This document shows, in pieces, positions 386 to 10,697 of a DNA stretch of 64,000 nucleotides. The position numbers were made by a program, and so were the translations under genes. The stretch is from an uncultured Ignavibacteria bacterium (GTDB lineage: Bacteria > Zixibacteria > MSB-5A5 > UM-FILTER-46-8). The first letter of the stretch is position 1, and every line of letters starts with the position of its first letter. The notes below the pieces were generated by a model that did not search any database, had not been told where the DNA came from, and saw only the letters and a program-made list of their open reading frames with translations. The stretch covers positions 64,091-128,090 of the forward strand of contig CAZLVS010000002.1 in NCBI GenBank assembly GCA_964563085.1, written 5' to 3'.

Positions 386-595
386 GATTGCTTCGTCGTT
401 TTACTTCTTGGAGCGCGGCATGTTTAGCTGATGGATGCGCAATAATGCATCAGATAAACATGCTAATGGATACAAAAACATGCTTGTCTCTACGCCTGCG
501 GCTACGAGCTAAGCATGCCACTCATGTTTTTTATGCTGAGGCTATGCTACGGTACAGAAAAGTGGCGCCAGGTCGCCGCACCTGGCGCTAAGTTT

Positions 596-883: not shown

Positions 884-3862
884 TTACTTCGGATCACCCA
901 GCAAAAAAAATGCGCCCCAAAAATAGGGATGGGCGGCTCCGTATGATCGTCTAAATTCGTCGATAGCATCCAAAATGGATAAGCGAAGAGCCTGCTGTTT
1001 AGTCTGACCGTTGAGCCAATAGTCATAGAATCGCACCATTATCTCGCGTGTTTCTCTATCAGGTACATCCCATAGGCTCATTATGATGCTGCGGGCGCCG
1101 GCATGCTGAAACGCTCTTCGCAATCCATAAATCCCCTCGCCATTCTTGACTTCGCCAACTCCGCTTTCGCATGCCGAAAGGACTACTAACTCCGTCCCGT
1201 TAAGGTCTAATCCCGAGATTTCAAAAGCAGTTGCGATTCCGTCCTCAACTTGGATATCCTCTCCGATATCTTTCTTATTCCTAAAACAGTTTGCGCCGGC
1301 AAGGGCGATGCCCGAACGCAATAACGGGTTTTCGCTCAAACCCTCCCCTCCCAAATCGGTATCTTCGCAGAAAAAGCCGTGAGTTGCCAGATGAACTACT
1401 CTGGGAACGCTGGTCATCCTCTTCAGTACTTCCTCGAGTGCCTCCGCTCCATAATAAGCCCGCACTTCGAGGTCTGCTCGGAGCTTCAGAAGCTCCGTAA
1501 CCGCTACCGCTTCGGCTTTGGTATGAGGCAGCAGCGGGCTGAAATCGGAATTTAAACATCCACTGCTGCCTCGGTATGATTCGAATCGATAGCCAATATT
1601 CGGCATTCCAGGTGTAGCGAGCTCTTCGCCTGTTACCGTATATTCCGGAGAATGCGCAAAATCCGGCTCCGCCATTACAAGCGCCCAGTTTTCGTATTTC
1701 TGTCCGCCCCTGTATTTCATCAGGTCGCGTCCGGATGAAAGGTAGCTTATTTTATATTTCTCAATGTTGAATCGCTCGTCCGGACCGGGTAGTATCTCGA
1801 AGGGCAATAGGTTGAGCTGAGCATCGGGAGATATGAATATCTGACTGATATTTTTGTCGGAGGCTATTAAGGGCTTAAAAATGATATTATACAGCCTACG
1901 CGTAAACTTGTTAAGCATTCGTTCCGCTTTCCTATCTCCATATTTATAAATTTCGCGACGCGCATTATAAAGCATTTCCCTGGTAGTAAGAATTAGCTCA
2001 TCGATCTCCCTGGCATCGCCGATGTCGATCATGGCAATTTCTTCCTCATGGTCAATGGTTATGACGAAATATCTCGGCGCTCCAGTTCTCTCCTCGTCGC
2101 TTCCGAGTTTTTTGAAATCGTAAGGATTATATTTAAGGAATTCCCAAAGTACGCTTCCTTTGGGCAGCGCTTTAGCGATATCATGCAAGCTAAACCGGTT
2201 CCTGATAAACTCGTCGCGATACTCGGAGCAGTTTTTACTGAGTTCGGTTTCAAGCGAATCCTTGGCTTCATTGAGAGTTCGCAGTCTATTTTGATACATT
2301 TCCGGGTTCAAGCTCCCTGCTCCGGTGAGAGTCAATGCAGCAATCTCCCCGCAGATGTCAGCATGTTGTTTCGCCATCAGTTCGATCTCATCGTTATCGG
2401 AGCAGTAGGCGATTTCATGCTCAGCGGATACGGCATCTAAAACCACCGCCTTCCCTTTTAACAGCATATCGAGTGCGAATTCACGCGCATCTTTCGAATC
2501 ATTCTGCAATGCCCAGAATATGTAGGTGTCAATTATCGGAGAGTGTTTGGATGCGAATCTGATTTTCTGTTCTTCGGATGCATAGGAGAATGCGTATTCG
2601 ATAAAGTTCTGCCTTGATCGATGGAGCTTTTTAAAATATAAATACGCCTCAGTTGATTTACCCATGCAGGCGTATAACTTCGCCAGACTATTATACCTGT
2701 TAGCAGTGCGAGGATGATCCGAACCGAGGGCTTTTTCCCTGATAGCAAGCGCGCGTTTGTAAAGCGGTTCAGATTCCGAATATCTACCGGTGCGGTAATA
2801 TATATTTGCCAGATCATTAAGAATCGGCGCCAGTTGAATATTCTCGAAGCCCAGTACGTTTTCATTAATTTCCAGAGCCCTTTTCTGGAGTTGCTCAGCT
2901 TGACGGTATTTTCTCAGGTCGCAATATATATCTCCGAGGATATTCATGCAGATCGCAACCGTAGTGTGGTTTGAACCGTAATGCTCTTCAGCTATTTTCA
3001 AGGCTCTTTTAGCATGTTGCTCCGCTTCGGTGTGCCTATCGAGTCCATTATAGAGTTGGGCAAGATAATTATGGATTATTCCTACATCCGGGTGATCGGA
3101 GCCGAGTGCTTTTTCGCGAATTGCTAATGCGCTTACATAAAGCGACTCAGCCTCGTTATATCTGCTTAAGTAACGGTAGGTGGTGCCCAAATTAAATAGA
3201 CTCACCCCTACCTTGTCATGTTCAGGTCCAAGCGATTCCTCAAAGATATGTAAAATCCGTCTTTCAAGATTCGCAGCATCGGTGTAGCTTCCCCGTATCC
3301 GGTAGATCACAGCCAGCTTACTTTGGCAGTCTGCTACATCCGGATGGTTTGTACCCAGTTTACCCCGTTTTATATCCTGTGCTTCCTGCAAAGCATTTTC
3401 GGCATCAGCGTATTTTCCTAAATTCATATAGGTCAATCCAAGATAAATCAGACTCTCCGCTGTTTCGAGATGATCTGATCCAAGCAATTCCTTTCTTAAG
3501 GCTGCAGACTTTCCAAAAAGCTTTTCGGATAAAGCGAAGTTCTTACTATCGAAATAACATAGGCCCTTTATGTGATAAGCATAAGCGACCATCCTATCAC
3601 GTTCACCGAATACCGATTCCGCTTCCTTAAGAGCTGATTCAGCATAAACCAACGCCGAATCCGGTTGATTGGCTTTTCTCAGGGAGTCGGCAAAATTAAG
3701 TGTGGTTAGTATATCTCTTTCGTCTGACGCCAAAATTTGAGCATGAAGGCAAACTATCAGAACAGCCGAGATTACCATGAGGATCGCAGTGAATTTAATT
3801 CGATGCTTGAATGACCAGTTACTATATCTTATACCCATAAATTGAACTCGAAGAGTAGTCAA
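884..3862 (-). CDS. membrane-anchored TPR-repeat protein with C-terminal CHAT (caspase-like) peptidase domain
   Basis: 992 aa. N-terminal hydrophobic anchor FTAILMVISAVLIVCL. Many TPR_12-like repeats (ALxIREKALGSDHPDVA...). C-terminal CHAT signature with His/Cys dyad context VVHLATHGFF and LVVLSACESG. Confidence 0.85.
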   Translation of the reverse strand: MTTLRVQFMGIRYSNWSFKHRIKFTAILMVISAVLIVCLHAQILASDERDILTTLNFADSLRKANQPDSALVYAESALKEAESVFGERDRMVAYAYHIKGLCYFDSKNFALSEKLFGKSAALRKELLGSDHLETAESLIYLGLTYMNLGKYADAENALQEAQDIKRGKLGTNHPDVADCQSKLAVIYRIRGSYTDAANLERRILHIFEESLGPEHDKVGVSLFNLGTTYRYLSRYNEAESLYVSALAIREKALGSDHPDVGIIHNYLAQLYNGLDRHTEAEQHAKRALKIAEEHYGSNHTTVAICMNILGDIYCDLRKYRQAEQLQKRALEINENVLGFENIQLAPILNDLANIYYRTGRYSESEPLYKRALAIREKALGSDHPRTANRYNSLAKLYACMGKSTEAYLYFKKLHRSRQNFIEYAFSYASEEQKIRFASKHSPIIDTYIFWALQNDSKDAREFALDMLLKGKAVVLDAVSAEHEIAYCSDNDEIELMAKQHADICGEIAALTLTGAGSLNPEMYQNRLRTLNEAKDSLETELSKNCSEYRDEFIRNRFSLHDIAKALPKGSVLWEFLKYNPYDFKKLGSDEERTGAPRYFVITIDHEEEIAMIDIGDAREIDELILTTREMLYNARREIYKYGDRKAERMLNKFTRRLYNIIFKPLIASDKNISQIFISPDAQLNLLPFEILPGPDERFNIEKYKISYLSSGRDLMKYRGGQKYENWALVMAEPDFAHSPEYTVTGEELATPGMPNIGYRFESYRGSSGCLNSDFSPLLPHTKAEAVAVTELLKLRADLEVRAYYGAEALEEVLKRMTSVPRVVHLATHGFFCEDTDLGGEGLSENPLLRSGIALAGANCFRNKKDIGEDIQVEDGIATAFEISGLDLNGTELVVLSACESGVGEVKNGEGIYGLRRAFQHAGARSIIMSLWDVPDRETREIMVRFYDYWLNGQTKQQALRLSILDAIDEFRRSYGAAHPYFWGAFFLLGDPK

Positions 3863-3868
3863 ACCCTT

Positions 3869-4543
3869 CTACTTAACCGCAAATTCATATTCATACAGGG
3901 TGGAATCGTATGCAGCGTTTTCATGAGATACCCTCAAAATGTAATTTCCAGGCGCAAAATTATCCACCGGTATCCTAACGCTTCCAATGATTCTCCCTTG
4001 AAATTCCGTATTAAGAGAATAATCAATATTGGAGACGACTATCTCATCATCAGGTGAAAATACTCCTATTAGATATTGCTTCTGCGGGTTCGATTTACTC
4101 ATATCGAAGATGATTTTGGCTTTTTCTCCCTTATCTAATAAAAGGATGTTTCCGGCTGCGCCTCTTTCAGGCATTAAGTATAATGTCTGCTGTACTCCTG
4201 TGCCTAACCAGTTTGTGAAACCGGCATATATCGCTACAATTAGTATCATCTGCGCCAATACAAGTTTTGGGGATTTAAGGCGGGGAATCAGTTCAAACAA
4301 CCATACCCGGATTCTCGACCGAATCGGCGGTGTGGGAGGGGATACCATATCGGATACTATCTCTTGCGCTTCTTCATCGACTCTGATTTGTAATGTAACC
4401 TCCTGGAATTGCATGAATTTCTCGAAACAGTACTCGCATTGAGCCAGATGAAGTTCGAATGATTCTCGCTCCTTATCATTTAAAATACCCAGTTCAAAAG
4501 CATGAAGTAATTGTCCGATGGATGGATCATTACATTCTTTCAT
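3869..4543 (-). CDS. anti-sigma factor, zf-HC2 type, single-pass membrane protein
   Basis: N-terminal HLAQCEYC = H-x3-C-x2-C zinc-finger anti-sigma motif. TM helix LVLAQMILIVAIYAGFTNWLG and ~95-aa extracytoplasmic C-terminus. Start abuts the stop of the upstream sigma gene. Confidence 0.75.
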   Translation of the reverse strand: MKECNDPSIGQLLHAFELGILNDKERESFELHLAQCEYCFEKFMQFQEVTLQIRVDEEAQEIVSDMVSPPTPPIRSRIRVWLFELIPRLKSPKLVLAQMILIVAIYAGFTNWLGTGVQQTLYLMPERGAAGNILLLDKGEKAKIIFDMSKSNPQKQYLIGVFSPDDEIVVSNIDYSLNTEFQGRIIGSVRIPVDNFAPGNYILRVSHENAAYDSTLYEYEFAVK

Positions 4544-5107
4544 CTATTCCACCTTCCCCTTTTCAAGACATTCCTCGATTTTAGCCCGGGCAATTGATAA
4601 AAGGTAATAACAGTAATTTGTTGTAATGCTTATCTTTTGGCTTATCTCCGGCGCCTTGTAGCCTTCGTAACTCAGGGCAAGAACATTGGCATAGAGCTTC
4701 TCTGAACCAACAACCATTTCAAAACACCTAAGGATCATTCGCCTCAGTTCCGGATCTTCATCCATTGATGGCGCATTAATTTCATACTGGTAATCACTCA
4801 AAGGTATCTGAATTTTCTTCCACCGCTTCTGTTTGGTGAAATGATTCCATAGTTTAAGGGTCATAATACGGTCTGCCCATTTTAAAAAGCCTGTCTGGAA
4901 ATCCATCTTTCTGTATTCATTTGCCACTGTCATAAGAGCTTTCTGGACAACATCCTCGATATCCTGTTTGTTCTTCATATTATTATAGTTCGCCAATCTG
5001 GTAAACCTTAGAGTCAATATCTCAAAAAGACGACTTTCCGAACTTTTACCCCCGTTTTGAGCTTCTCTTAATAAATCATCAATATCCAAAACGACAATCC
5101 TGATCAA
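4544..5107 (-). CDS. RNA polymerase ECF-type sigma-70 family sigma factor
   Basis: 187 aa. Sigma-70 region 2 and region 4 (LYANVLALSYEGYKAPEISQKISITTNYCYYLLSIARAKIEE HTH). Translationally coupled to the anti-sigma gene. Confidence 0.8.
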   Translation of the reverse strand: MIRIVVLDIDDLLREAQNGGKSSESRLFEILTLRFTRLANYNNMKNKQDIEDVVQKALMTVANEYRKMDFQTGFLKWADRIMTLKLWNHFTKQKRWKKIQIPLSDYQYEINAPSMDEDPELRRMILRCFEMVVGSEKLYANVLALSYEGYKAPEISQKISITTNYCYYLLSIARAKIEECLEKGKVE

Positions 5108-5331
5108 ATTTAACTACTATAATATTCCTTTAGAGGCGGGAATGCAAGGATAGATTTCACACGGCATTCTGTTTGAGACCAATGATTCAATAAAATATGT
5201 ATTTTGGGGCCGCTTTTCTAAGAACCGGGCTTCCGGCAAACTTAAATCATGTGAAAGACGGATTACGCATGAAGATACGAGAATGAGAACTAAATGCCAC
5301 AAACCTAAAATTAATCAAAGGAGAAACTAAA

Positions 5332-8133
5332 ATGAAAAAGAGATTAATTTACCCCGCTGTCATAATTTGGGTTTGCGTCTTTGCGGCGATGCCGGCGAAC
5401 GCAAATTGGAGCAAACAGACTATTGATGGCAATTACGATGGGGCATTTATCGCCTATGCCGTCGACCTTGATTCCGACGGCGATATGGATGTTTTGGGAG
5501 CGGCTCGCGATGGCGATGAAATCACCTGGTGGGAAAATGACGGCAGCCAGAATTTCATCGAACGCATTATCGCTGAAAACTATCTCGGCGCCTATTCACT
5601 TGTTGTCGTCGACTTGGATATCGACGGCGATCTGGATATTGTAAGCGCCGCCTACGATGGGGACGAGATCACATGGTGGGAAAACGACGGTAACCAGAAT
5701 TTCGCCGAACGCCTAATCTCCGGTATTATTGACGGCCCCTCCGAACTCTTTGCTATCGACTTAGACAGTGATGGCGATATCGATGTGTTAGGAGCCGTCT
5801 ATGTGGGTGGTTTTATAACTTGGTGGGAAAATGACGGCAATCAGAACTTTGTCGAGCATCTCATCGATTTTACCTTCTTCGGCGCTCATCATGTCCATGC
5901 GGCCGACTTGGACGGCGACGGCGACCAGGATGTAATCGGGGCGGCTCGCATCAACAATGAAATCACCTGGTGGGAAAACGACGGCAACGGTAATTTTGGC
6001 CAACCTATTGTCATCGCCGCCTTTGAAAATGCGGTGGAAGCGTATGCCTATGATCTGGATAACGACGGCGATCTGGATATTTTGGGAGCCGGTCACGCTG
6101 TCGGCGTCAGCGGAATCGCTTGGTGGGAAAATGACGGCGCCCAGAATTTCACGGAACACACTATCGATCAGAACTTCAATGATCCCTTTCATGTCGCCGC
6201 CGTCGATTTTGACAACGATGGCGACCTGGATGTTCTGGCGGCTTCGAATGCCGATGATGAAATCGCTTGGTGGCAAAACGATGGAGACCAAACCTTCAGC
6301 AAGCAGGTTATCGACGGAGCTTTCAATGGAGCTAATTACGTTTGCGCCGCCGATATGGATGACGACGGCGATCTGGATGCCGTAGGAGCCGCTCGCTATG
6401 GGGATGAAATCGCCTGGTGGGAAAATGATATAGCGAGTTTCACCGAACATACACTCTATGAAAATTTCTGGGATTTCTGTGCGGCGGATGTCAACGGCGA
6501 CGGGCATGCCGATATCATAGGAGCCGATTCTATCGGCAATGAAATAATCCTGCTGCGTAATGATGGCAATGAGAATTTCAACTCCAGTCAAATCGAAGGC
6601 GGCTTTTTAGGCGCCAATACTGTGGACGTAGCGGATATCGATGGCGATGGGAATCTCGATATTCTGGGGGCGGCTTCCAGAGAAGGCGATGTGGCTTGGT
6701 GGAGGGGATTCGGTAATGGGACTTTCGGCGGTATGAACCTCATCGATGCGGTTTTCCATTGGGCGGGGGATGTAAAAGCGGTCGATCTGGACATTGATGG
6801 CGATATTGACATTCTGGGAGTTTCATCGGCCGCGGGCATTGGACTGCATTGGTGGGAAAATGACGGCAATCAGAATTTCACCGAACACACCATTGACTCA
6901 GACCAACTTGGCAAAAACCTCATTGTTGCAGATCTGGAAGACGATGCCGATTTGGATATCTTGATCTCCTGGGCGGATAATATATACTTGTGCGAAAATG
7001 ACGGCGCCGGTAATTTTCTCTGCTACCCCTTCTTCGGAGCGCCGGATGTCGAACGTATATATGCTATCGATTTAGACAATGATGGCGATACGGACGTACT
7101 GGATGCAGAACGCAACGGCTGTATCACTTGGTGGGAAAACCAGGGCAACATGGTTTTCGACCGCCATCACTGCGGCATCGGTATCGATTTCTTGGGGGCT
7201 TACGGCGTTCATGCGGGCGATATCGACAATGACGGCGACATAGATGTTTTGGGTTCCTCCGCTTCCCCGGATTTCGGCAAAGTTGCGTGGTTCGAGAATG
7301 ATGGAGACCAGAACTTTATCATGCACACTATCGATGGAGACTTCGATAACGGACGTGATGTTTATGCTATCGATGTTGACAATGATGGCGATTTGGATGT
7401 TTTGGGGTCTGCCACAGCCGGCAATCAAATGACTTGGTGGGAAAACGATCTTAATCCTCCCTGGTGCGATGTCAACATGATTCCCGACGATGATCCTGTT
7501 GTAGTTCCACCTGGGGGAAACTTCGGACTTACAGGAATCATCGGAAATCCAACTGAAGATCCGATTATAACTGATGTATGGGTCGGCGTGAAAAATCCGT
7601 TTGGTTCTCTTATAGTATTATATGAATTCTCGAACATTCCTCTTAATCCCGGGCAATATTTGGAATCGCACTTAAATCAATCCGTTCCTGTGAGCGCCCC
7701 ACCGGGAATCTACCAGTTCGAAGCTTATTGCGGTGATCTTAGTAGTTGGACAACCTGTGATTTCGCTTACTTCTCTTTCACGATAACGGGAGCGCGTTTA
7801 GCGGATGGCGCCACCGAATGGATTCTTGATGGAGGTTGGTTTGAGAATGAAACCGCGCCTGATATCCCGGCGGACTATACCCTGAATGAAGCCTATCCTA
7901 ATCCGTTTAACGCTACCACTACTATCAGCTACAATCTACCGATCGCGGGTAATGTTAAACTACAAGTTTACAACCTATTAGGTCAGAGAGTTGCCGTACT
8001 CGTGGATGGTAATTTAGATTCCGGGGAGCATACCGTAACATGGGATGCATCCGATTATTCCAGCGGTGTTTACTTCTACAAACTCATCGTTGGGGACAAA
8101 ATGTTTACAAAACGGATGACGCTGTTGAAATAA
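5332..8133 (+). CDS. secreted FG-GAP/VCBS-type repeat (beta-propeller) protein with conserved pre-CTD module and T9SS C-terminal sorting domain
   Basis: Signal peptide. About 14 repeats of DLDxDGDxDVLGAxxxGDEITWWENDGNQNF. Module MIPDDDPVVVPPGGNFGLTGIIGNP...YCGD...FTITGA. CTD AYPNPFNATTTISYNL...GVYFYKL...KRMTLLK. RBS AAAGGAG. Confidence 0.85.
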   Translation: MKKRLIYPAVIIWVCVFAAMPANANWSKQTIDGNYDGAFIAYAVDLDSDGDMDVLGAARDGDEITWWENDGSQNFIERIIAENYLGAYSLVVVDLDIDGDLDIVSAAYDGDEITWWENDGNQNFAERLISGIIDGPSELFAIDLDSDGDIDVLGAVYVGGFITWWENDGNQNFVEHLIDFTFFGAHHVHAADLDGDGDQDVIGAARINNEITWWENDGNGNFGQPIVIAAFENAVEAYAYDLDNDGDLDILGAGHAVGVSGIAWWENDGAQNFTEHTIDQNFNDPFHVAAVDFDNDGDLDVLAASNADDEIAWWQNDGDQTFSKQVIDGAFNGANYVCAADMDDDGDLDAVGAARYGDEIAWWENDIASFTEHTLYENFWDFCAADVNGDGHADIIGADSIGNEIILLRNDGNENFNSSQIEGGFLGANTVDVADIDGDGNLDILGAASREGDVAWWRGFGNGTFGGMNLIDAVFHWAGDVKAVDLDIDGDIDILGVSSAAGIGLHWWENDGNQNFTEHTIDSDQLGKNLIVADLEDDADLDILISWADNIYLCENDGAGNFLCYPFFGAPDVERIYAIDLDNDGDTDVLDAERNGCITWWENQGNMVFDRHHCGIGIDFLGAYGVHAGDIDNDGDIDVLGSSASPDFGKVAWFENDGDQNFIMHTIDGDFDNGRDVYAIDVDNDGDLDVLGSATAGNQMTWWENDLNPPWCDVNMIPDDDPVVVPPGGNFGLTGIIGNPTEDPIITDVWVGVKNPFGSLIVLYEFSNIPLNPGQYLESHLNQSVPVSAPPGIYQFEAYCGDLSSWTTCDFAYFSFTITGARLADGATEWILDGGWFENETAPDIPADYTLNEAYPNPFNATTTISYNLPIAGNVKLQVYNLLGQRVAVLVDGNLDSGEHTVTWDASDYSSGVYFYKLIVGDKMFTKRMTLLK

Positions 8134-8149
8134 TATAGCGTTATACTCC

Positions 8150-8182
8150 TTGAAAACGGACCGTGTATTATGGTCCGTTTTC
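8150..8182 (+). terminator. intrinsic terminator
   Basis: AAAACGGACC-GTGTATTAT-GGTCCGTTTTCTGTGG hairpin plus U-run, 17 bp after the stop. Confidence 0.55.
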
Positions 8183-8450
8183 TGTGGACAGTACTTGAGT
8201 AATACCAATCTATACATTAACAGCCGTAGAAAAGCTTCCGAATTGCGCGAAGCTTGAGGAGCAATCCGATAACATAAATCTCCTAATGTAAATGATCTAC
8301 TCAGAAAAGCATCTTCCCCGTTTTTCAACAATTCCTCTAAGAATCGAACCTTTCGCAAACTTTACCTATGTGACAGACAGAGCATTCGAAAAATGTGAGA
8401 AGAGAGTTTAAACAAGACTAATTCGCAAATCAATCAAAGGAGAAACAAAA

Positions 8451-10697
8451 ATGAAAAAGAGACAAATTCTAATAGCAATGATACTTGCTATCCTGGTTTC
8501 CACAAGCGGGGCGGAGGTTATAAACATCCCCGAAGACTATGAAACGATTCAGGAAGGGATAGACGCCAGCACAGACGGCGACATGGTTTTAGTTGCACCG
8601 GAGACCTATAATGAAAACATAAACTTCCATGGCCGCAAAATAATCGTAGCATCATATCATTTCACCACCGGTGACACAGCTTTCATAACATCGACCATCA
8701 TTGACGGGGGAGAGAACGGTTCAGTAGTTCGATTTTGTAATTATGAAGATAGTCTGTCTGTTTTAACCGGCTTCACAATCCGGAATGGAAGCACAATGGG
8801 ATTAGGGGGAGGAATTCAGTGCTGGGAATCCGGTCCAAAAATCACGCACAATAAAATTGTCGATAATGCCGCTGGCGAAGGCGGTGGAATCGGTTGTGGA
8901 TGCTGTGCGTATGGCGGTAGTGGTCCGATAATTTCCGACAATGAAATCGCCAATAATTCCGCAAATGATGGAATGGGAGGGGGAATAAGCTGCAATCAAG
9001 TCTCAGGGGCGAAGATCACCAATAATGTTATCTCCTACAATACCGCTTCAACCGGCGGAGGAATTGGGTTTGATGATACCTCCGATGAATGGGTTAACAA
9101 CAATACGATCTGTTACAATTTGGCTGACGATGGCGGCGGGATTAGTTGCAGCAGGATTGGACAGGTTACTATTACCAACAATGAGATTCTCGGTAATTCC
9201 GCCGAAAGAGGCGGGGGGATTAAAATGTATGAGAATTCGGGGGGCTGGATTGACAGCAATACTATCATATATAACTCGACCGATGATGGAGGCGGCATAT
9301 ACTGTGTCGGTAATTCAACGCCTTCCATTGCTAACAATATTCTTGCCAGTAATACCGCCAACAATAAAGGCGGAGGCATTTACTGCTGGGGAGCCGAACC
9401 TTCTATTAGCGATAATTCCATCGAAAACAATTCGGCATATGTTGGCGGAGGAATCTACTGTTATGAAATTACCGAACTGATAATCGATAACAACAACATC
9501 GACGGCAACTCTGCCGATGAAACCGGAGGCGGTATACTCGCAGATAGCGGAACTCCTATCATTATCAACAACACTATTACCGGTAATTCCGGTTCTTCGG
9601 GGAAAGGGATAGCATGTGTTAATTCAGATGCCTCAATAAGAAATAACCTTATCACCCTCAATCAGGAATTCGGGCATGGCGGAGGTCTTTTCTGTTCCCA
9701 TAGCGATCCCCAAGTTGATCACAATACCATCACCGATAATTCAGCCGGCAGAGGCGGCGGTGTTTACTGTTACAATTCCAATCCAATAATAACAAACACT
9801 ATTCTGTGGGGGAATTCGGCTACTTATGGTTCTGAAATCTATACAGTTGATAGCGATCCGAGCGTAACTTATTCGGACGTGGAAGGCGGATGGACAGGAG
9901 AAGGAAATATTAACGCAGATCCTTTGTTCTGCGATCCGCAGCTTCCGGATTTTTGGCTTGCAGAGAATTCTCCATGTGTTGGAAGCGGTCAAAATGGCGA
10001 GGATATAGGGGCTTATGGGATCGGATGCGAGGCGATTGGCATTTGCTGTGATATCGACATGATTCCAGATGATGATCCTGTCATTGTTCCTCCTGGCGGT
10101 TCATTTGGTTTGACAGGCATTATAGGCAATCCAACTGATGATCCGATTACAACCGACGTATGGGTAGGCGTAATATACATGGGGAGTTTCTACCAGCTCT
10201 GGAATTTCCCGAACATTCAGCTTAATTCCGATCAGTATCTGAATTCTCATCTTAATCAAAACGTTCCGGGCAATGCTCCGGTAGGGACTTATGACTATGT
10301 CGCTTATTGCGGCGACAAACCTGAAGTCTGCGACTCAGCAAAGTTTCAATTCACAGTAAGCGGAGCTCGTATTAACGGCGGCGCCGAAGAATGGAACCTT
10401 CAGGGAGGATGGAAGGAGGATGAACTTGCTCCGACCGAATGCATACTCGATAGTAACTATCCAAATCCCTTTAACCTGAAAACTACGATCACCTACGAGC
10501 TGCCGAAAGCATGTGAAATTTCTCTTACCATCTATAATTTGATGGGTCAGGAACTGGCTACGTTGGTGGAGGGCGTACAGGACGCAGGTAAACATCAAGT
10601 GCAATGGGATGCCGCTAATCGGTCCAGCGGAGTTTATTTCTATAAATTGGAGGTTGGTAATAGAGTATTCACAAGGCGGATGACATTGTTAAAGTAG
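8451..10697 (+). CDS. secreted right-handed parallel beta-helix repeat protein with conserved pre-CTD module and T9SS C-terminal sorting domain
   Basis: Signal peptide. About 20 repeats of NNxIxxNSAxxGGGIYC. Module MIPDDDPVIVPPGGSFGLTGIIGNP. CTD NYPNPFNLKTTITYEL...GVYFYKL...RRMTLLK. The 5' leader, RBS and MKKR start are near-identical to the preceding gene. Confidence 0.85.
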   Translation: MKKRQILIAMILAILVSTSGAEVINIPEDYETIQEGIDASTDGDMVLVAPETYNENINFHGRKIIVASYHFTTGDTAFITSTIIDGGENGSVVRFCNYEDSLSVLTGFTIRNGSTMGLGGGIQCWESGPKITHNKIVDNAAGEGGGIGCGCCAYGGSGPIISDNEIANNSANDGMGGGISCNQVSGAKITNNVISYNTASTGGGIGFDDTSDEWVNNNTICYNLADDGGGISCSRIGQVTITNNEILGNSAERGGGIKMYENSGGWIDSNTIIYNSTDDGGGIYCVGNSTPSIANNILASNTANNKGGGIYCWGAEPSISDNSIENNSAYVGGGIYCYEITELIIDNNNIDGNSADETGGGILADSGTPIIINNTITGNSGSSGKGIACVNSDASIRNNLITLNQEFGHGGGLFCSHSDPQVDHNTITDNSAGRGGGVYCYNSNPIITNTILWGNSATYGSEIYTVDSDPSVTYSDVEGGWTGEGNINADPLFCDPQLPDFWLAENSPCVGSGQNGEDIGAYGIGCEAIGICCDIDMIPDDDPVIVPPGGSFGLTGIIGNPTDDPITTDVWVGVIYMGSFYQLWNFPNIQLNSDQYLNSHLNQNVPGNAPVGTYDYVAYCGDKPEVCDSAKFQFTVSGARINGGAEEWNLQGGWKEDELAPTECILDSNYPNPFNLKTTITYELPKACEISLTIYNLMGQELATLVEGVQDAGKHQVQWDAANRSSGVYFYKLEVGNRVFTRRMTLLK

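Follow-up and report, generated by a model that had tools for sequence, protein, structure and literature searches.

An ECF sigma factor, a zinc-type anti-sigma factor and a TPR-CHAT protein encoded as a conserved trio: a candidate split counterpart of DdvS/DdvA

In classical regulated intramembrane proteolysis (RIP) of anti-sigma factors, RseA is processed by DegS and RseP, RsiW by PrsW and RasP, and FecR-type proteins by Prc and RseP. In Myxococcus xanthus, DdvS, a sigma factor of the extracytoplasmic function (ECF) type, is paired with DdvA, a transmembrane anti-sigma factor with a periplasmic tetratricopeptide repeat (TPR)-CHAT domain (PMC6061681; PMC11506125). The cryo-EM structure of DdvA was reported in 2024 (PDB 8rot, 8rw5; PMC11506125), and its authors proposed that signal-induced CHAT autoproteolysis in trans removes the domain, after which RseP acts; the RseP step has been shown (PMC11506125). 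According to the same authors, DdvA is the sole characterised anti-sigma factor of its kind, and DdvA-like proteins were found only in Myxococcota and in one Comamonas (PMC11506125). A second described system is the type III-E Craspase, in which Cas7-11 is joined by the TPR-CHAT protein Csx29, which cleaves Csx30, a binder of the ECF sigma factor RpoE (PMC10028731). Here we describe three adjacent genes for an ECF sigma factor, an anti-sigma factor and a TPR-CHAT protein in a 64,000-nucleotide stretch, hereafter the window, of an uncultured Ignavibacteria bacterium assigned by GTDB to the Zixibacteria (contig CAZLVS010000002.1, positions 64,091 to 128,090).

We propose that this trio is a split, trans-acting counterpart of DdvS/DdvA in which the TPR-CHAT protein would act as site-1 protease on the ectodomain of the anti-sigma factor, and we assign this reading a probability of about one half. 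Its support is indirect: the trio is tightly co-inherited, the two envelope proteins share a compartment, the catalytic dyad is invariant and 'Rosetta-stone' fusions are found. In the searchable literature, the split trio of ECF sigma factor, anti-sigma factor and periplasmic TPR-CHAT protein appeared in no paper found, and only the DdvA papers tie a periplasmic TPR-CHAT protein to an anti-sigma factor. The ECF classification paper (PMC7826278) makes no mention of CHAT in its main text, and a prior listing in the ECF Hub is possible.

The locus resembles DdvS/DdvA in combining an ECF sigma factor with a zinc-binding (CHCC-type) N-terminal anti-sigma domain, a single transmembrane helix and a predicted periplasmic TPR-CHAT protein with an intact His-Cys dyad, and in the proposed logic of CHAT as site-1 protease followed by RseP. 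DdvA was also the closest PDB match to the CHAT protein of the window: it was the sole PDB sequence match of a profile of the CHAT region (8rot/8rw5, E 2e-5) and ranked first among the Foldseek matches of the CHAT model (E 3.5e-13), followed by human separase and Csx29. In contrast to DdvA, which is one polypeptide, the anti-sigma factor and the TPR-CHAT protein are here the products of two genes, and both carry separate signals for export or topology; DdvA is also without the immunoglobulin (Ig)-like ectodomain present on this anti-sigma factor. Comparison of the N-terminal domain of DdvA (8rlz_A) with the anti-sigma profile gave an E value of 0.61, which indicates no specific relation. The genomic setting differs as well, since DdvA-type anti-sigma factors are tied to the control of a CRISPR and CBASS (cyclic-oligonucleotide-based antiphage signalling system) defence island, whereas no such island was found in the window and the neighbours are genes for cargo of the type IX secretion system (T9SS). 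Moreover, DdvA-like fusions were reported only in Myxococcota and the one Comamonas, whereas the split form was found in Zixibacteria, Ignavibacteria, Glassbacteria, Gemmatimonadota, Acidobacteriota and Chthoniobacterales. The trio is best placed outside the DdvA family and, by analogy, plausibly works like DdvA.

A preliminary description of the locus had taken Craspase as its only well-studied precedent. DdvS/DdvA proved to be closer, DdvA being the top PDB match by structure and by sequence. Craspase shares the genetic linkage of a TPR-CHAT protease with an ECF sigma factor and a sigma-binding inhibitor, and it is similar in fold, with Csx29 chains matched by Foldseek at E values of about 1e-12 and template-modelling scores of up to 0.6 on the target. 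It is, however, cytoplasmic and activated by CRISPR RNA-guided target RNA on Cas7-11, whereas the present protein carries a Sec signal and is predicted to be periplasmic; its inhibitor is Csx30, whereas here a classical membrane zinc anti-sigma factor is encoded. Cas7-11, Csx30, Csx31 and CRISPR arrays were all absent from the window, and the neighbourhoods of relatives were also without them. A PADLOC scan of the 30 large open reading frames (ORFs) of the window matched no Cas or CBASS model, and a search of the window for a CRISPR-like array was likewise empty, which agrees with the earlier statement that neither cas genes nor an array are present.

The likeness to classical RIP lies in the single-pass anti-sigma factor, with its anti-sigma domain in the cytoplasm and, in the periplasm, a domain that has to be removed before sigma release, and in the translational abutment of the sigma and anti-sigma genes. 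The classical site-1 protease is a serine (DegS, Prc) or metallo (PrsW) enzyme, whereas the operon-encoded candidate here is a caspase-like cysteine protease of clan CD with a TPR sensor array. Separase offers a further parallel, as a helical-repeat scaffold joined to a caspase-like domain and as one of the top structural matches (human separase). Separase cleaves after Arg, and a conserved Arg is found in the candidate substrate loop of the anti-sigma factor, with Arg specificity here being speculative. There is no sequence-level relation between the two proteins beyond the fold, and both compartment and biology differ.

The three genes and their predicted products

ORF calling placed all three genes on the minus strand, at the positions previously reported: the ECF-type sigma gene at 4544..5107 (187 aa from TTG 5107), the zinc-type anti-sigma gene at 3869..4543 (224 aa) and the TPR-CHAT gene at 884..3862 (992 aa from a TTG). 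The tight packing was also confirmed. The TAG of the sigma gene and the ATG of the anti-sigma gene are contiguous (TAGATG, a spacer of 0 nt), and the CHAT gene starts either at the TTG 6 nt past the anti-sigma stop or at ATG 3838, 30 nt past it, which is the choice of public gene callers and gives a product of 984 aa. Pfam matches and family profiles bore out the three protein identities. A terminator-like hairpin at 565..588 on the minus strand (T-rich tail; stem of 9 pairs, 7 of them GC), ~300 nt 3' of the CHAT stop, is a possible end of the operon.

The TPR-CHAT protein matched Pfam CHAT (PF12770) with an E value of 7.6e-69 over residues 653-990 (profile positions 3-289 of 289) and TPR_12 with an E value of 9.8e-75. 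Together with the AlphaFold model (predicted local distance difference test [pLDDT] 87.2, predicted template-modelling score 0.83), these matches delineated a hydrophobic N-terminal helix (Sec signal or anchor, residues ~19-45), TPRs at 67-427, a helical linker and the CHAT domain at 653-990. In the model, about nine 42-residue TPRs of the kinesin light chain type form helix pairs across residues 67-427, fewer than the roughly 15 repeats counted before. Both residues of the catalytic dyad, H828 in the motif ATHG (codon 1381..1379, minus strand) and C898 in LSACESG (codon 1171..1169, minus strand), were found at the conserved positions, and both were invariant among 14 CHAT-only homologs as well as 66 full-length ones. 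The gene product is, as far as sequence can tell, a CHAT-domain protein of clan CD with its dyad intact, and a predicted protease.

The N-terminus of the TPR-CHAT protein (KHRIK-FTAILMVISAVLIVCL-HAQILA/SD, the slash marking the presumed cleavage point) contains a hydrophobic segment that fits a cleavable Sec signal, and orthologs in the same gene context begin with classic signal peptides. Because of the Sec-type signal and the signal peptides of the orthologs, the protein is predicted to be exported and periplasmic. The N-terminal membrane anchor of the preliminary description is not established; its segment looks like this cleavable signal. Since the CHAT orthologs carry classic signal peptides, the TPR-CHAT protein and the anti-sigma ectodomain are expected to share the periplasm. 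Residues 742-768 (about nt 1559..1639) form a low-confidence loop with pLDDT below 50 that leads into a conserved R764-G-x4-C769-L...F-x-P-L-P motif, shortly ahead of the catalytic core. This could be an autoprocessing or regulatory loop.

The anti-sigma factor matched zf-HC2 with 23.8 bits (cutoff 22.2) and contains the motif H32-x3-C36-x2-C39 as well as the upstream ligand C4. H32, C36 and C39 were invariant, and C4 nearly so, in 117 relatives, and the protein is assigned to the class I zinc-associated anti-sigma (ZAS) type with a CHCC pattern; binding of zinc and of the sigma factor is predicted. The best PDB matches of the anti-sigma domain were RslA and RsiW. The AlphaFold model (pLDDT 87) comprises an N-terminal helical anti-sigma domain, one transmembrane helix at residues ~92-112 and a beta-sandwich. 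Because an Arg/Lys-rich stretch precedes the helix, the N-terminus is predicted to lie inside and the C-terminus outside. The zinc motif and the single membrane passage reported earlier were therefore retained, but the extracytoplasmic part is longer than the ~95 aa given then: it measures ~112 aa (residues 113-224), of which residues 118-223 are modelled as an eight-strand Ig-like beta-sandwich. In this domain, R127 lies in a P-x-R-[SG] loop after strand 1 and was invariant in the 12 closest orthologs and conserved in at least 90% of the 117 relatives.

Word-indexed searches with the anti-sigma factor returned only 2 to 4 proteins, and the family was revealed by an unindexed profile search, which gave 1098 relatives and 490 cluster representatives at E<=1e-10. 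The best 150 of the 1098 relatives were about 180-260 aa long, mostly 210-240, and nearly all matched most of the profile. Faint Por_Secre_tail matches in a few members raised the idea that the ectodomain mimics a T9SS C-terminal sorting domain; this idea was rejected because a profile-profile comparison with the sorting domains of cargo proteins gave a probability of 0.6%.

As a single sequence, the sigma factor scored 21.3 bits with Pfam Sigma70_ECF (cutoff 21.1) and 21.7 bits with Sigma70_r2 (cutoff 24), and its NCBIfam matches were all sub-threshold, the best being TIGR02989. Among 26 orthologs, Sigma70_r2 matched 15 and Sigma70_r4_2 matched 9. The family profile aligned positions 3-174 with its best PDB matches, SigW, SigH and sigma-E (E 1e-7 to 1e-5), and DdvS was not among the PDB matches of this profile. 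The cognate anti-sigma gene, a mark of ECF membership, lies directly 3' of the sigma gene. On these comparisons the gene at 4544..5107 encodes an ECF (group IV) sigma-70 factor, an assignment that is secure at family level, and a very divergent one, because the single-sequence Pfam scores are borderline. The ORF coordinates reported earlier stand, but the true start is likely TTG 5089, giving a protein of 181 aa: there is an AGGA 8 nt upstream of it, the start agrees with those of gene callers and orthologs, and an identical 181-aa protein is on record.

Two cysteines of the sigma factor, C128 at the start of region 4 and C180 near the C-terminus, were invariant in 26 sequences covering the Fibrobacterota-Chlorobiota-Bacteroidota (FCB)-type and acidobacterial subfamilies, which suggests a disulfide, metal or redox feature within the protein. 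The only named records found for orthologs of the sigma and anti-sigma factors, MBD3233826.1 / GF315_08890, are both annotated 'hypothetical protein'; routine annotation overlooks this sigma family. Just 5' of the sigma start, a weak sigma-70-like promoter (TTGCAT-N17-TATTAT, 5119..5147, minus strand) was read from the sequence and scored under the threshold of the promoter scanner. A sigma-70-like promoter ~65 nt before the start was common to the upstream regions of 56 sigma orthologs, with TTGAC-N14-19-TAnnnT, near the TTGACA/TATAAT consensus, at the equivalent position in at least 35 of the 56 loci.

Conservation of the trio

The three-gene neighbourhood was surveyed from both ends and was kept in both surveys; this check, like that of the catalytic dyad, thus came out in favour of the preliminary description. 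In the CHAT-side scan (one genome per species, 80 loci, ORF calling with local hidden Markov models), the order of sigma factor, single-pass anti-sigma factor and signal-peptide TPR-CHAT protein was found in 25 of the 80 loci. All 10 assessable closest relatives, from Zixibacteria, Glassbacteria, Gemmatimonadota and Ignavibacteria, had the trio, each with an anti-sigma factor of about 224 aa carrying H-x3-C-x2-C. A further 14 loci belonged to Acidobacteriota and Chthoniobacterales. There the middle protein is 266-368 aa long and no longer has the Cys ligands, although its C-terminal ectodomain is retained along with a P-x-x-R-G motif; zf-HC2 matched 10 of the 17 sequences in a mixed alignment. 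TPR-CHAT genes of Desulfobacterota, Cyanobacteria and others in the 80-locus scan were without the trio.

The sigma-side scan covered metagenomes with a narrow sigma alignment, and CHAT was counted within 5 kb at loci with at least 3 kb of downstream sequence. Of 38 assessable loci, all but one had an anti-sigma gene directly after the sigma gene (37 of 38). Where downstream sequence was sufficient, CHAT lay at most 5 kb away in 13 of 19 loci. One of these 13 CHAT genes, that of L118, is convergently oriented, and a second convergent case (L125) lies outside the 3-kb set. In five of the six CHAT-less loci the anti-sigma factor is itself fused to a periplasmic TPR array. The fusion of L124 (547..1992, 481 aa) carries TPR_12, the same TPR type as the CHAT proteins, and those of L126 (1763..4075), L127 (2422..4821), L132 (4619..7006) and L134 (1434..3827) are 761-770 aa long, the fused region of about 550 aa containing FlgO/CsgG-like and TPR segments. 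No CHAT domain was found in other reading frames of the CHAT-less loci. The short, 224-aa-type anti-sigma factor with the Ig domain was accompanied by CHAT in 13 of 14 loci.

In a Zixibacteriota chromosome (L008; CP070674.1, 6024..17005), three tandem TPR-CHAT genes follow one sigma/anti-sigma pair, and L020 seemingly holds a tandem pair of modules. Some lineages have thus expanded the protease component. Because the arrangement recurs across phyla, it is far from chance. Together, the surveys from both search directions showed that several uncultivated bacterial phyla have kept the trio.

A bipartite DNA element and the neighbouring cargo genes

A bipartite element, in its favoured orientation [CG]TAAG[AG]-N12-15-GC[AG]AAC, was found in exactly three copies in the 64-kb window, against 0.23 expected. 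The internal copy (CTAAGG-N12-GCGAAC, 4988..5011, minus strand) lies in sense orientation within the coding sequence of the sigma gene, at codons L33-N40. An upstream copy (CTAAGAAC-N10-GCAAAC, 5218..5241, plus strand) lies 91 nt before the ATG of a gene at 5332..8133 (plus strand), which is transcribed divergently from the sigma gene and encodes a protein with FG-GAP repeats and, at the C-terminus, a T9SS sorting domain (Pfam FG-GAP_3 E 6.3e-73, Por_Secre_tail E 1.4e-10). The third copy (CTAAGAAT-N10-GCAAAC, 8337..8360, plus strand) is again 91 nt from an ATG, that of a beta-helix protein with the same kind of sorting domain (8451..10697, plus strand; Beta_helix E 3.3e-30, Por_Secre_tail E 8.9e-9). 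Both plus-strand copies are situated at the distal edge of a ~130-nt block common to the upstream regions of the two cargo genes.

The same two places were used in related loci. Across 59 loci, 34 of 38 element matches were internal or upstream, whereas shuffled sequences of these loci gave about 6 matches in total. The internal sense copy was present in 19 of the 59 loci and an upstream copy pointing away from the sigma gene in 15; the reverse orientation occurred at the upstream position in none of the 59. Locus L001 repeats the pattern of the window, with copies at 6734..6756 (minus) and 6961..6983 (plus), the latter 90 nt from the ATG of its cargo gene. In the lineage of the window and L001, the first base of the element is C rather than G in both the internal and the upstream copy. 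In L095 and L114, additional sense-oriented copies lie between the anti-sigma gene and the CHAT gene.

Codon usage at the internal copy was strongly skewed. Arg was encoded by AGA in 39 of 44 cases against 19% elsewhere in the same genes, Val by GTA in 28 of 39 against 18%, and Lys by AAA in 37 of 38 against 60%, and the skew held even in GC-rich genes. The internal element is held by nucleotide-level selection. We infer that the element is probably the target promoter of the sigma factor, with a polarity argued from its position. The internal copy may serve the rest of the operon, the genes for the anti-sigma factor and CHAT, as a sigma-dependent promoter, and the FG-GAP and beta-helix cargo genes are putative members of the regulon.

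The opposite polarity, in which the upstream element would be an autoregulatory promoter facing the sigma gene, was set aside because transcription from the second copy would run into the FG-GAP gene at its 3' end, because both copies lie exactly 91 nt from a cargo ATG at the edge of the duplicated block and because the internal, L095 and L114 copies face the anti-sigma and CHAT genes; autoregulation together with antisense transcription under that polarity is a less favoured alternative. A role of the inverted repeat in RNA pairing or as an invertible switch was judged unlikely because only the end boxes match (~16/25 positions in L091), the spacers being neither conserved nor complementary. 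Between the FG-GAP and beta-helix genes (8134..8336, minus strand) there is a 21-aa ORF at 8275..8210 with AGGAG 5' of it, and 3' of this ORF, at about 8140-8175, a hairpin that is strong and bidirectional (AAAACGGACC...GGTCCGTTTT). With the opposite promoter polarity, the ORF and hairpin would make up a short sigma-dependent transcript.

The association with T9SS cargo extends to related loci. The closest relative is a candidate division Zixibacteria metagenome-assembled genome in which the anti-sigma factor is 84% identical and the trio and beta-helix neighbour are kept, and an ortholog of the beta-helix gene adjoins the module in L001. The divergent neighbour of the sigma gene was T9SS cargo in 6 of 10 large neighbours tested, a sample picked by size, in addition to the window and L001. 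Three more Por_Secre_tail proteins were present among the 27 other large ORFs of the window (10.9 to 62.3 kb); T9SS cargo is thus common in this genome, and adjacency carries less weight as an argument. The same 27 ORFs include a Peptidase_S41 (Prc/Ctp-type) protein, a conventional candidate site-1 protease nearby. The remaining genes of the window are housekeeping genes, for topoisomerase, NAD synthase, KsgA, TatD, a DinB-type polymerase, the S41 peptidase and others.

Proposed mechanism and competing explanations

In the proposed resting state, the sigma factor would be made from the housekeeping-type promoter and held at the inner membrane by the zinc domain of the anti-sigma factor. The exported TPR-CHAT protein would meet the Ig-like ectodomain in the periplasm, where the TPR array may dock the ectodomain, a ligand or both. 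An envelope or extracellular cue would then activate the His828/Cys898 dyad and the ectodomain would be cut, the conserved P-x-R-[SG] loop at R127 being a candidate site. Loss of the ectodomain would unblock an RseP-type site-2 protease and release the sigma factor, which would transcribe the two neighbouring T9SS cargo genes from the bipartite element, and the element within the sigma gene would re-supply the anti-sigma factor and the CHAT protein as negative feedback. The preliminary description had put the CHAT protein in the place of the signal-dependent protease, and synteny, the shared periplasm and domain-fusion logic make this the best reading. Because the TPR fusions and DdvA join an anti-sigma factor to TPR(-CHAT) segments, the separate proteins of the trio are predicted to be physical partners. 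Cleavage by CHAT, the cut site and the involvement of a site-2 protease are likewise put forward as predictions.

Several points weigh against this proposal. Cleavage of the anti-sigma factor is itself inferred from synteny, a shared periplasmic location and domain-fusion logic, and in DdvA, too, CHAT cleavage is only proposed: mutants of the dyad behaved like the wild type and the signal is unknown (PMC11506125). In the anti-sigma model, beta-strand 1 comes only ~5 residues after the transmembrane helix and the R127 loop lies in the folded domain, whereas DdvA has a long flexible linker. L129 holds a sigma gene and a short anti-sigma gene with no CHAT gene within 4 kb. A motif search in the acidobacterial branch found none above shuffles, the spacer of the element is shorter than in typical ECF promoters and its polarity follows from position only. 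Furthermore, co-transcription is equally compatible with CHAT as an output of the sigma factor.

In that last explanation, which we consider improbable, the TPR-CHAT protein would be a periplasmic protease or scaffold that the sigma factor induces along with the T9SS cargo, for instance for the processing or quality control of exported proteins, and conventional DegS-, Prc- or CtpA-type site-1 proteases would inactivate the anti-sigma factor. The regulon of an ECF sigma factor often takes in genes co-transcribed with it and its anti-sigma gene; induction of CHAT by the sigma factor is implied by the candidate element within the sigma coding sequence and by the copies that L095 and L114 have ahead of CHAT, the three tandem CHAT genes of L008 resemble an expanded effector more than a dedicated regulator, and the S41 peptidase could supply the conventional site-1 activity. 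However, the short-type anti-sigma ectodomain tracks CHAT (13 of 14 loci), the anti-sigma factors of CHAT-less loci bear TPR arrays themselves and DdvA unites both functions in one chain (PMC11506125). Moreover, anti-sigma factors and other negative regulators are usually sigma-induced, so induction is compatible with a regulatory role.

It is about as improbable that the TPR-CHAT protein acts without proteolysis, its ligand-sensing TPRs shielding or unshielding the ectodomain, or that the Ig-like ectodomain inhibits the protease in the manner of securin or chagasin. The top four Foldseek PDB matches of the anti-sigma model were all the cysteine-protease inhibitor EhICP2 (E 3e-5 to 4e-4), separase is under a pseudosubstrate inhibitor, and the bulky domain of DdvA was proposed as a steric block to RseP (PMC11506125). 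The TPR-only fusions of L124, L126, L127, L132 and L134, which work without a CHAT domain, point the same way, and the invariance of the dyad is among the grounds on which proteolysis by CHAT is preferred.

A regulator of an antiviral or conflict system, comparable to DdvS/DdvA, Craspase, CalpL or SAVED-CHAT sigma circuits, is very improbable here: the characterised links between a protease (CHAT or other) and an ECF sigma factor all lie in defence contexts (PMC11506125; PMC10028731; bioRxiv 10.1101/2023.06.23.546230), but PADLOC matched neither the sigma nor the anti-sigma factor and gave a generic TPR match alone for CHAT, the 27 other large ORFs yielded 4 isolated generic matches (five PADLOC models: mad2, DpdF, QatD, two pVip), and the neighbourhood, both here and at related loci, is made up of housekeeping genes and genes for T9SS cargo.

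We return to the proposal of CHAT as a site-1 protease acting in trans. A more tentative extension of it is that widespread, unannotated ECF switches may use a free periplasmic TPR-CHAT protein as a signal-dependent site-1 protease in trans and may carry a target promoter inside the sigma coding sequence, mirrored upstream for T9SS surface proteins. What is new is a form of the DdvA principle that is split, proposed to act in trans, widely distributed and outside defence, and that brings a separate family of anti-sigma ectodomains and a predicted regulon of T9SS cargo; the category itself is known.

The site-1 step of DdvA is hard to prove, as protease and substrate form one chain and the signal is unknown (PMC11506125). 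The split module presents them as two small, separately expressible proteins, which makes the hypothesis directly testable in vitro. In addition, the codon-constrained internal element and its copies at cargo genes amount to a concrete regulon prediction and would place a regulatory site within the coding sequence of the regulator itself. The principle would be far more widespread than reported, extending over six phylum-level lineages and 490 anti-sigma cluster representatives with no defence context. If the proposal is true, caspase-family proteolysis would be a general mechanism of envelope signalling in FCB-group and acidobacterial lineages, beyond myxobacterial and CRISPR defence.

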